Assembly (NCBI GenBank): GCA_963798845.1
Contig: CAWCUS010000006.1
Location: forward strand, 352,001 to 416,000
Source: an uncultured Gemmatimonadales bacterium
GTDB taxonomy: Bacteria; Gemmatimonadota; Gemmatimonadetes; Longimicrobiales; RSA9
Direction of reading: 5' to 3'
DNA length: 64,000 bases
Part shown: positions 45,715-49,869 of the stretch, in pieces
How positions within the stretch are numbered: position 1 is the first letter of the stretch
Layout of the letters: each line of letters opens with the position of its first letter
Translations under genes and position numbers: made by a program
The notes under the pieces: model-generated
Databases searched by the model: none
Told to the model about the DNA's origin: nothing
The model's input: the letters and a program-made list of their open reading frames with translations, nothing else

Positions 45715-46803
45715 TCAGTCGCCGAAGGAGATTCCGAGGTCGCGGGCAGTCTGGACGATGTCCGAGTCCAGCGGCACGGCCTTGATCCGGGCGATCGCCT
45801 CCTCGAGCGGAACGGCGTGAACCTCCGGCGGATCGAGGGCCACCATCGTTCCGTACTTCTTCTCCTCCACGGCGCGGATGGCGGCCGCACCGAAGCGGAG
45901 CGCGATGAGCCGATCATAGGCGATCGGGGATCCGCCGCGCTGGAGGTGCCCGAGCACCAGGGAGCGCGTTTCCTTCCCTGTCTCGGCGGCGACATTGGCC
46001 GCCACCCGCTCCGCCATCCCGCCGTACCTCGCCGCACGACCTGGCCGCGCCTCTTCCACCAGCGCGGGCTCACCCTCAGCGGGGCGCGCTCCTTCCGCCA
46101 CCACGATGATGGTGAAGCGGCGCCCGCTGCGGTCGCGCTCACGGATCTTCTCGTACACGCGCTCCATCCGGAACGGGATCTCCGGAATGAGGATCACGTC
46201 CGCAGTGGCGCTTACGCCGGCGTAGAGGGCGATCCAGCCCGTGTTCCGGCCCATCAATTCCACGACCATGACGCGCTCGTGGCTTTCTGCCGTGGAGTGG
46301 AGCTTGTCGAGCGCTTCCGAGGCGGTCTGGACGGCCGTGTGGAAGCCGAACGCCACCTGGGTGGCCGAAAGGTCGTTGTCGATCGTCTTGGGCACGCCCA
46401 CCACGGGCATCCCCTTCTTGGCGAGGCTGTTGGCGATGTGCAGCGAGCCGTCACCGCCGATCGCGATGAGGGAGTCGAAGCCCCGACTGCGGAACGACTC
46501 GATGAGCTCGTCCGACCGGTCGACGGTGATCATGGTCCCGTCCGGCTGCTGCACCGGCCACTCGAAGGGGTTGCCGCGGTTGGTGGTCCCGAGGATCGTG
46601 CCGCCGAGATGGGTGATCCCCCGAACGGTTTCGGAGTCCAGGCGGATGATCGCCTCCTCGCCGAGCAGCCCACCGTACCCCTTCCGGATGCCGTGCACCT
46701 CCCAGCCGCGGTTCAGCGCGGACAGCACCGTCGCCCTTATGACTGCGTTCAGGCCCGGCGCGTCGCCGCCGCCCGTGCTGATCGCCACTCGTCGAAAGCT
46801 CAT
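45715..46803 (-). CDS. pfkA: 6-phosphofructokinase
   Basis: TGGGDAPGLN, GGDG, PKTIDND, ELMGR and LGHLQRGG motifs. Confidence 0.93.
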   Translation of the reverse strand: MSFRRVAISTGGGDAPGLNAVIRATVLSALNRGWEVHGIRKGYGGLLGEEAIIRLDSETVRGITHLGGTILGTTNRGNPFEWPVQQPDGTMITVDRSDELIESFRSRGFDSLIAIGGDGSLHIANSLAKKGMPVVGVPKTIDNDLSATQVAFGFHTAVQTASEALDKLHSTAESHERVMVVELMGRNTGWIALYAGVSATADVILIPEIPFRMERVYEKIRERDRSGRRFTIIVVAEGARPAEGEPALVEEARPGRAARYGGMAERVAANVAAETGKETRSLVLGHLQRGGSPIAYDRLIALRFGAAAIRAVEEKKYGTMVALDPPEVHAVPLEEAIARIKAVPLDSDIVQTARDLGISFGD

Positions 46804-46819: not shown

Positions 46820-47044
46820 TCACGTTCCCCCGAGAGCCGCCCGCACATCCTCCCACTCCGGGTGCCGTCCCGTCCTCTTCTTCGAATAGACCAGGTCCCC
46901 GTCCCGACGGACCTCGAACACGCCTCCGCGAGACTCGATCAGCTCCACGGTGGCATCGGGGAACTCCGCCTGGATCCGTGCCTCCAACCTGGAGGCTCGC
47001 GGCAAGTAGTTTCAGATGCCGCAGTATTCGATGCTGACGTGCAT
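46820..47044 (-). CDS. SelT/SelW/SelH (Rdx) family selenoprotein, 74 aa, Sec at in-frame TGA 47012-47014
   Basis: Reads MHVSIEYCGI-TGA-NYLPRASRL...GGVFEV...VYSKK..GRHPE. CxxU motif, with GGAGG 8 nt before the ATG. Confidence 0.88.
46976..47002 (-). promoter_or_regulatory. Putative bacterial SECIS element
   Basis: Minus strand, 15 nt after UGA: GCCUCC-AGGUU-GGAGGC stem-loop with G-containing loop, extendable by CCG/CGG. Confidence 0.7.
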
Positions 47045-47179
47045 GAGACTGCCCTCCCGTTGCTGTGCCGGAGATAGGTTGCCGTTCCGACCGCTCGCGG
47101 GCAAGAAACGTACGTCGGGAAGGACGCAGCGGGCGTGTCCGGGCGGGCGGTGGGGCGCGGGGCGGGAAGGAGCGGCGGG

Positions 47180-48112
47180 TCACGCGTCGCCGGCGACGAG
47201 CATCTCGCCTTCCGTCGCGATGGCGAGCGACAGCCCCGATCCGCGGCGCTCCACGTCCGCCAGGAGCGCGTTCAGCACGTGGAGGAGCTCGTCGTCGCTT
47301 CGCTCGGGCGCGTGGTGGAAAAGGCAGAGCTTGCCCACGCCGGCGTCCTCGGCCAGGCGGACTGCCTGTGCGAAGGTGCTGTGCCCCCAGCCCTCGACGC
47401 TCCGGTACTCGGCGTCCGTGAACATGGCGTCGTGGAAAAGGATGTCCACCCCGTCGAGGAAGTCGACGAGACCCGGGTACCACCCCGGCCCATCCACCCG
47501 GTATCGCCCGCCCACCAGCTCATTGTCGGGTATGTAGGCCACTGCGGCCGACCCCGTCCGGATGCGGTAGCCGTACGTGTCTGCCGGGTGGCGGACCCGG
47601 TACGCGGCGACCTCCACGCCCCCGTCCCCCCACGCCTGTCGGGACAGGTGCTGGAAGGACAGGCTCGCGGCCAGCGATTCGTAGGGAACCGGGAAGTAGA
47701 CGGGGCCCATCTGCGCCTTGAGGAGCGTGGCAATGTCCAGCCCGTCCTGTGGTGCCGCGTGGACGCGGATGAAGCTCTCTGCCTCGTGCAGCGGGGCGAA
47801 GAAGGGGATGCCCTGGATGTGGTCCCAGTGGAAGTGGGTGAGGAAGAGGTCCACGTCCGTGACGCCGGGCTCCCGCACGAGCTCCCGGCCGAGGCCCCGG
47901 ATTCCGGTGCCGGCGTCGAAGATGTAGCGGCGCCCGGCCGCGCGGACCTCCAGGCATGGCGTGTTCCCGCCGAAGCGCACGGTGGCGGGACCCGGACTCG
48001 GGATCGACCCGCGTGTCCCCCAGCACGTCGCCCGTACGTCCGTGGCCTGAGCGGTTCCGGCTTCTGCGTCGGCGGAGGGGAGGGGGACCGGGGCTCTGGG
48101 GTCGCGATCCAT
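47180..48112 (-). CDS. MBL-fold metallo-hydrolase (phosphodiesterase-like)
   Basis: WGTRGSIP..FGGNTPC, DAGTGI, THFHWDHIQG, GWGHS and FHH motifs. Start uncertain. Confidence 0.88.
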   Translation of the reverse strand: MDRDPRAPVPLPSADAEAGTAQATDVRATCWGTRGSIPSPGPATVRFGGNTPCLEVRAAGRRYIFDAGTGIRGLGRELVREPGVTDVDLFLTHFHWDHIQGIPFFAPLHEAESFIRVHAAPQDGLDIATLLKAQMGPVYFPVPYESLAASLSFQHLSRQAWGDGGVEVAAYRVRHPADTYGYRIRTGSAAVAYIPDNELVGGRYRVDGPGWYPGLVDFLDGVDILFHDAMFTDAEYRSVEGWGHSTFAQAVRLAEDAGVGKLCLFHHAPERSDDELLHVLNALLADVERRGSGLSLAIATEGEMLVAGDA

Positions 48113-49572: not shown

Positions 49573-49869
49573 ATGACTGACGAGAAGACCGTCATGAAGG
49601 CGCTCCGGAAGGTGAAGGACCCGGAGCTCAACCTGGACCTCGTGGTTCTCGGCCTGATCTACGGGGTGGACGTGCACGGCGAGCACGTGCACGTGAGAAT
49701 GTCGCTCACCACCCCCATGTGCCCCGCCGCAGACCAGATCCTCATGGACGCCAAGCGGGAGATCGAGGCGCTCGAGGGCGTCGACTACGCCGAGGTCGAG
49801 CTGACCTTCGACCCGCCCTGGAGCCCCGAGAAGATGGACCCGCTGATCCGGGCCTCGCTCGGCCTCTGA
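49573..49869 (+). CDS. Metal-sulfur cluster assembly factor (SufT/DUF59)
   Basis: VKDPEL..LGLIY, LTTPMCP and FDPPW motifs. Confidence 0.92.
   Translation: MTDEKTVMKALRKVKDPELNLDLVVLGLIYGVDVHGEHVHVRMSLTTPMCPAADQILMDAKREIEALEGVDYAEVELTFDPPWSPEKMDPLIRASLGL

Follow-up and report, generated by a model that had tools for sequence, protein, structure and literature searches.

Gene organization at the SelW/Rdx locus

The window analyzed here, a 64,000-nucleotide stretch of the genome of an uncultured Gemmatimonadales bacterium, carries on its minus strand a SelW/Rdx-family gene that contains an in-frame TGA at codon 11 and is directly followed by a 6-phosphofructokinase gene (pfk). The features of the locus are as follows.

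46820..47044, minus strand: SelW/Rdx-family gene, 74 codons plus a TGA stop, with UGA11 very likely read as selenocysteine (Sec); PF10262, TIGR02174, NF041051 and structural model
47053..47057, minus strand: Shine-Dalgarno sequence GGAGG, seen in the sequence 8 nt before the ATG at 47044; many relatives have purine-rich upstream stretches
47021..47023, minus strand: codon (TGC) for Cys8 of the CxxU motif, invariant in 28 of 28 aligned proteins
47012..47014, minus strand: in-frame UGA, codon 11, putative Sec; TGA conserved in relatives and across the phylum, aligned with Cys of PDB 2fa8 and 3dex
46980..46996, minus strand: bacterial SECIS-type hairpin GCCUCC-AGGUU-GGAGGC, from its fold, pairing, compensatory changes and a recoding control
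45715..46803, minus strand: 6-phosphofructokinase gene, matched by PF00365 and, above its cut-off, by NF002872, with the motifs GGDG and PKTIDND; probably starts 16 nt past the Rdx stop
47180..48112, minus strand: metallo-beta-lactamase (MBL)-fold hydrolase (PF12706), upstream, start uncertain; 3 of 25 family loci, this one included, have it at a distance of up to 1.5 kb
49573..49869, plus strand: FeS_assembly_P (SufT/DUF59-like) gene, divergent; most relatives have it upstream of the Rdx/pfk unit by a few hundred bases

The gene opens with ATG CAC GTC AGC ATC GAA TAC TGC GGC ATC TGA AAC TAC, and beyond UGA11 a further 63 codons remain open as far as the TGA at 46822-46820. The original prediction had described a hidden SelW/Rdx selenoprotein with an in-frame UGA and a SECIS element, and everything it named on the minus strand can be read in the sequence, from the ribosome-binding site and ATG through IEYCGI-U-NY to GGVFEV, VYSKK and GRHP downstream of the UGA; the hairpin, which it placed 15 nt after the UGA, starts at exactly that distance (GCCUCC at 46996-46991, loop AGGUU, GGAGGC at 46985-46980). 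The program-made ORF list indeed offers for this locus a TTG-start fragment of 61 aa (46820-47005) only. Family cut-offs, the sel genes and the conservation of both TGA and hairpin, all described below, support the prediction as a whole. In a coding model trained on the genome, the frame after UGA11 scores +24.0, against -13.5 to -83.8 in the five other frames; the first 12 codons past UGA11 score negative (-7.1), which we attribute to the constraint imposed by the SECIS.

Family membership and predicted structure

Scored with C in place of U, the protein exceeds the cut-offs of PF10262 (70.9 bits, cut-off 22.6), TIGR02174 (63.6 bits, cut-off 34.2) and NF041051 (96.3 bits, cut-off 88), and each of the six PDB sequences matched by phmmer is SelW-like or MIEN1. 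In the phmmer alignment, the UGA11 column holds the second Cys of the CxxC motif in the solved homologues 2fa8 and 3dex, and relatives have TGA there, in agreement with the Cys or Sec that had been predicted for this column of an Rdx alignment. Among named relatives, the nearest are MAGs of Longimicrobiales and of other Gemmatimonadota.

The AlphaFold model, built on a 28-row alignment, has a mean pLDDT of 92.5 and the order strand-helix-three strands-helix, with the first strand at residues 2-8, a helix at 14-27 and C8-G-I-UGA11 at the end of the first strand. Foldseek matched it to 2fa8, 2obk and 2p0g with TM scores of 0.88-0.90 (0.89 for 2fa8) and an rmsd of about 1 Å, and more broadly to bacterial SelW-related chains (TM 0.83-0.90) and to mouse SelW (0.66). 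The protein is predicted to adopt the reduced thioredoxin-like fold, and G40, G41 and V45 of the GGxFEV/I strand are invariant in the 28 aligned proteins, as are I5 and C8 upstream of UGA11. The fold is shared with the Cys-type bacterial Rdx structures Atu0228 (2fa8), 2obk, 2oka, 2p0g and 3dex, with mouse SelW (2npb) and with human MIEN1 (2ljk). The two Cys forms that were aligned (2fa8, 3dex) have CxxC-x-W, whereas the Gemmatimonadota protein has CxxU-N-Y and a shorter C-terminus.

The gene is thus a real member, and an unremarkable one, of the bacterial SelW-like redox family, which has long been known. Bacterial SelW-like selenoproteins have stood in catalogues since the mid-2000s (PMC1794560, PMC2398784); they were tabulated across bacterial genomes (PMC1794560) and, with 427 sequences, made up the largest of the selenoprotein families in GOS (PMC2398784). 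A review lists SelW-like as "predicted with high confidence, PF10262, CxxU", describes the functions of such families as largely uncharacterised and, in its operon section, names Prx rather than pfk as the neighbor (PMC13188914). The present gene resembles the known members (PF10262, TIGR02174 CXXU_selWTH, NF041051) in the CxxU ending strand 1, the GGxFEV motif, the length of about 75 aa and the UGA with an in-gene bSECIS, and differs in its Gemmatimonadota lineage and its fixed place before pfk. Campylobacter jejuni SelW (CJnc60, 80 aa) was likewise hidden by annotation that took the Sec UGA for a stop; it comes from a different phylum, and its translation beyond the UGA is supported by Ribo-seq and MS peptides (10.1101/2022.11.09.515450), whereas the Gemmatimonadota gene is known from sequence.

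Conservation of the in-frame TGA

Among 61 related genomes, 29 match SelW/Rdx, with TGA at codon 11 in 28 and TGC in one. In an even sample of 201 genomes of the phylum, which counts G198 (flagged as unpublished) as one genome, 131 match TIGR02174 and 130 of these carry a single in-frame TGA; such counts come from non-independent kin, and searches seeded with the SelW/Rdx protein favor the Sec clade over distant Cys-type Rdx. The expectation that relatives would keep a Sec codon or Cys at this column was borne out, almost always by TGA. selA was detected in 162 of the 201 sampled genomes and in 127 of the 130 with TGA; the remaining three, all fragmented assemblies, have selB over the cut-off, and two of them have tRNA-Sec as well. 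The conservation extends to named loci from many phyla, in which TGA was present in all of the best 80 of 97 (79 by script and one, L077, by eye).

A search for selA, selB and selC in the genome with the Cys copy (G042, 97% complete) found none of them, and this copy has no hairpin (1 of 6 pairs). In family f3 of the same order, selA and tRNA-Sec were found in 0 of 12 genomes, compared with 34 and 32 of 36, respectively, in the family of the present genome and 12 of 12 in family f2, which suggests a likely family-wide loss of Sec use in f3. The f3 member G042 carries a distant Cys-type Rdx. Within the family of the present genome, no SelW/Rdx gene was detected in 12 of 36 genomes, and 10 of these 12 carry selA; the gene is therefore dispensable.

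Several deviating copies were observed. At L077:3001-3220, the TGA and hairpin are intact and a +1 frameshift follows in a C run, possibly marking a pseudogene or an assembly error. P0002, a single sequence on one 3978-nt contig, encodes a full-length 72-aa homologue that is 76% identical and has Arg at the Sec position; it and L077 are possibly two broken or mis-assembled copies. The Sec-type Rdx at locus L048 (genome G047) is extended at its C-terminus by about 50 aa with many Cys pairs, which may be real metal-binding sequence or the result of a lost stop.

As for sequence accuracy, three public runs contain part of the region, all as DNA contigs, and the public sequencing runs listed for the region include no RNA run. 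Reads with TGC or TGT would speak against recoding; two near-identical contigs, one in run X1 (0 differences) and one in run X2 (1 difference, at 46828), both span the TGA and leave it unchanged, and a more distant contig in X1 likewise keeps it. The contigs have a depth of 2-3 and possibly derive from the source sample, in which case they would not be independent.

The SECIS-type hairpin

In ViennaRNA, the hairpin folds as a 7-bp stem with a GGU loop at -10.7 kcal/mol, a stability reached by 0 of 200 shuffles; it is retained in contexts of 40-80 nt, over which its z-score fades from -2.1 to -0.2. The bSECIS constraints given in Fig. 2 of PMC13188914 are a loop of 3-9 nt, a stem of 4-16 bp, a G in the first two loop positions, a UGA-to-loop distance of 16-37 nt and an MFE of at most -7.5 kcal/mol. 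With its loop AGGUU (or GGU), G at position 2, stem of 6-7 bp and UGA-to-loop spacing of 21-22 nt, the present hairpin lies within all of these ranges. The genome is 70% GC, and under a loose definition 12,907 of its 79,042 TGA triplets have a SECIS-like hairpin after them (16%; 6% when a stem of at least 6 bp is required). Because of this frequency, the hairpin alone is weak evidence, and its use by itself as proof of Sec was ruled out. Of 79,038 genomic TGA triplets, 154 are followed by a fully paired 6-bp stem that has this exact register and a G at loop position 2.

Conservation, as judged from the aligned sequences, places the combination of hairpin and TGA beyond chance. In the alignment of the 28 TGA loci, 98.2% of the cells of the 6-bp stem are paired, and two of its pairs show compensatory changes. 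The observed score for pairing or for covariation is reached by 0 of 500 shuffles; the number of pairs changed on both sides does not attain significance (108 of 500 shuffles). As the hairpin sits inside coding sequence, a recoding control was run: the stem is fully paired in 45 of 56 loci, whereas 1000 synonymous, protein-preserving recodings give 9.3 such loci on average and never more than 19. The hairpin is conserved beyond protein constraint. Loop position 2 is G in 55 of 56 loci, and codon choice in the loop is strongly skewed: AGT for Ser in 21 of 21 cases (3 of 179 elsewhere in the genes), AGG for Arg in 17 of 18 (17 of 180 elsewhere) and GGT for Gly in 15 of 16 (38 of 263 elsewhere). 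In distant phyla, among the best 80 of 97 named loci and at a fixed register, at least 5 of 6 pairs form at the same register in 67 of 79 TGA loci and fewer than 5 in the other 12.

Selenocysteine machinery and other putative selenoprotein genes

The genome (4.26 Mb, 6 contigs, 96% complete) contains selA (548 bits, cut-off 268), selB (360 bits, cut-off 242) and selD (383 bits, cut-off 125) by profile search, together with a tRNA-Sec gene, selC, with anticodon TCA (72, cut-off 47). The Sec machinery that the original prediction implied is thus present in full, over curated cut-offs; each gene lies in a different contig region and none within the window. About 0.7 kb downstream of selA lies a gene without TGA for a HesB/IscA-type Fe-S protein (G000:C1:89860-92282, minus strand), and elsewhere 19 tRNA genes are clustered in 2.5 kb (G000:C2:202989-205480, minus strand).

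Three further genes of known selenoprotein families carry an in-frame TGA at the canonical column. SelD (G000:C6:518009-518929, minus strand) has TGA in its HGAG-x motif with a long hairpin (-23.5 kcal/mol) and is likely itself a selenoprotein. An FdhA/FdnG-type molybdopterin oxidoreductase gene, which runs off the contig end (G000:C3:195421-197149, plus strand), has TGA at 195979 in an ENQARI-x-HS motif, followed by a predicted stem-loop, and likely encodes a Sec formate dehydrogenase. The third, an AhpC-TSA peroxiredoxin (Prx) with a signal-like N-terminus (G000:C1:657459, minus strand), has a 7-bp hairpin, and its TGA occupies the peroxidatic position. With Rdx, at least four putative selenoprotein genes were recognized in scans with the genome-trained coding model, which are noisy: TAG controls were as frequent as TGA in two runs, and each threshold set missed true genes. 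In family searches, the genome's own matches to CMD/AhpD (2), thioredoxin (11) and HesB-type proteins (2) were without TGA.

Genomic neighborhood and the link to pfk

Within the family, pfk lies directly downstream of Rdx in 25 of 25 loci, and over several families in 49 of 53 TGA loci, a set from which one duplicate, the Cys copy and three sister-family loci lacking pfk were omitted. Among the 48 loci with an assigned pfk start, this start overlaps the Rdx stop in 12 and falls within 20 nt of it in 34; at two loci, the script picked a GTG at +31 where an ATG at +16 is likelier. Spacing among relatives ranges from -10 to +79 nt, and pfk here is preceded by a purine-rich stretch of its own. Terminator-like sites number 2, against 1.0 expected, with none between Rdx and pfk, and a promoter scan found no sigma-70 site. 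pfk is likely co-transcribed with the SelW/Rdx gene. The linkage has limits: in one sister family, 0 of 3 loci have Rdx near pfk, and of the best 80 of 97 named loci nine have pfk in the vicinity of Rdx, all labelled Gemmatimonadota or its orders. Read-through of the terminal TGA into a pfk fusion was ruled out, pfk being out of frame here and the frame varying among relatives.

In 20 genomes, 21 pfk loci have no linked Rdx; no Rdx remnant was found upstream of pfk at any of these loci, and the SufT-like gene stays in place at 13 of them. The translated PFK of this genome contains no Cys, and within the family no PFK Cys tracks with linkage, the commonest one occurring in 39 of 48 linked and 6 of 9 unlinked same-family copies; a redox target Cys in PFK is accordingly not supported. 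Because Rdx remnants are absent, the SufT-like gene is kept and no PFK Cys follows linkage, we read the Rdx-pfk pairing as a shared housekeeping transcript.

Further upstream, the MBL-fold hydrolase and a gene for a cNMP-binding PP2C protein separate the SufT-like gene from Rdx, and the hydrolase is, in the loci compared, a patchy neighbor outside the conserved core. Between 47180 and 49460 of the window, this hydrolase (minus strand) and the cNMP-binding/SpoIIE-type phosphatase protein (plus strand) are divergent, and they occur together in 3 of 25 family loci. The hydrolase matches the cyclic-nucleotide phosphodiesterase model NF041851 weakly, far below cut-off, and the pair is possibly a cyclic-nucleotide signalling module.

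Alternative explanations and proposed mechanism

The best explanation, which we hold to be almost certainly correct, is an intact 74-codon SelW/Rdx gene in which UGA11 encodes Sec, specifying a predicted thioredoxin-like Cys8-x-x-Sec11 oxidoreductase from a dispensable cistron before pfk; the comparative evidence makes it very likely that UGA11 is decoded as Sec. A pseudogene with a nonsense codon, or a TGA created from TGC or TGT by faulty sequencing or assembly, would be in keeping with TGA being the commonest stop of the genome (1445 of 1996 long ORFs, with the SelW/Rdx gene, selA and selB among them) and with the 12 of 36 family genomes that lack a match. However, the same TGA recurs in 130 of 131 phylum homologues, the conserved frame is intact downstream, the hairpin covaries, and the codon is unchanged in the two near-identical public contigs (maybe from the source sample, and non-independent); because TGA, frame and hairpin are conserved, we regard this reading as refuted, with a vanishingly small residual probability. 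A genome-wide alternative code that reads UGA as Trp, Gly or Cys is of negligible probability: near-cognate read-through is compatible with the tRNA inventory alone, but the sole TCA-anticodon tRNA listed by ARAGORN is tRNA-Sec, the TGA stands at a column where homologues have Cys, and since TGA is an ordinary stop in those 1445 of 1996 long ORFs, reassignment is excluded. It is also very improbable that the true product is a C-terminal fragment of 55-61 aa started from a downstream TTG or ATG, with the CxxU part never read through. Such a product would resemble 23 of 24 database matches, which are 43-65 aa long (55-74% of the query), and the five matches examined start at a Met equivalent to residue 20, yet 23 of 28 relatives have Leu at codon 20, which is not a fixed start, I5 and C8 before the TGA are invariant, the Shine-Dalgarno sequence stands before codon 1, and in the model the fragment would be without strand 1 and the active site.

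An addition compatible with the Sec reading is a functional selW-pfk pairing, in which PFK is under redox control by SelW, or pfk expression is set, through translational coupling or polarity, by how far UGA11 is read through, with selenium tuning glycolysis. The constancy and closeness of the two genes (25 of 25 family and 49 of 53 TGA loci; 12 of 48 overlapping and 34 within 20 nt) and the lack of a terminator-like site between them would suit this proposal, but stop/start overlaps are common in ordinary operons, the spacing varies and pfk has its own purine-rich upstream stretch. Moreover, PFK has no Cys in this genome, and its commonest Cys elsewhere is also found in unlinked copies; the 21 pfk loci with neither Rdx nor a remnant, 13 of them with the SufT-like gene, indicate that pfk manages alone, and the sister family keeps Rdx apart from it. 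We therefore consider a functional pairing unlikely.

Returning to Sec at UGA11, a mechanism may be proposed from the SelA/B/C/D pathway as established for bacteria (PMC13188914). SelD would supply selenophosphate, SelA would convert Ser-tRNA(Sec) to Sec-tRNA(Sec), and SelB-GTP-Sec-tRNA would bind the hairpin 15 nt downstream through the loop G and bring Sec to UGA11. Judging from fold and motif, Sec11 and Cys8 may cycle between the selenol/thiol and selenenylsulfide states, and the predicted enzyme would reduce or isomerise disulfides on protein partners. Most likely, the SelW/Rdx gene is a dispensable cistron at the head of a housekeeping transcript shared with pfk, and would use the pfk promoter region rather than act on PFK.

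Significance

The SelW-like family and the recoding mechanism have long been described. Our searches found no literature on Gemmatimonadota SelW or on a selW-pfk pairing, with the survey supplements, which may list Gemmatimonadota SelW-like genes, lying outside the search; the conserved position directly before pfk is the one clue that may be new. The finding is mainly an annotation fix, as nearly all database entries of this family are fragments that lack the active site (the 23 of 24 matches above), and it indicates that Sec use is widespread in Gemmatimonadota, with selA in 162 and TGA-type Rdx in 130 of 201 sampled genomes. The phylum-wide link to pfk offers a concrete, testable lead, although tests for a functional link were negative or neutral. 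It is conceivable, if decidedly improbable, that a Sec-dependent leader before or overlapping pfk makes UGA11 read-through a selenium sensor that sets PFK synthesis across much of Gemmatimonadota; if this were true, a trace element would control glycolysis via recoding.
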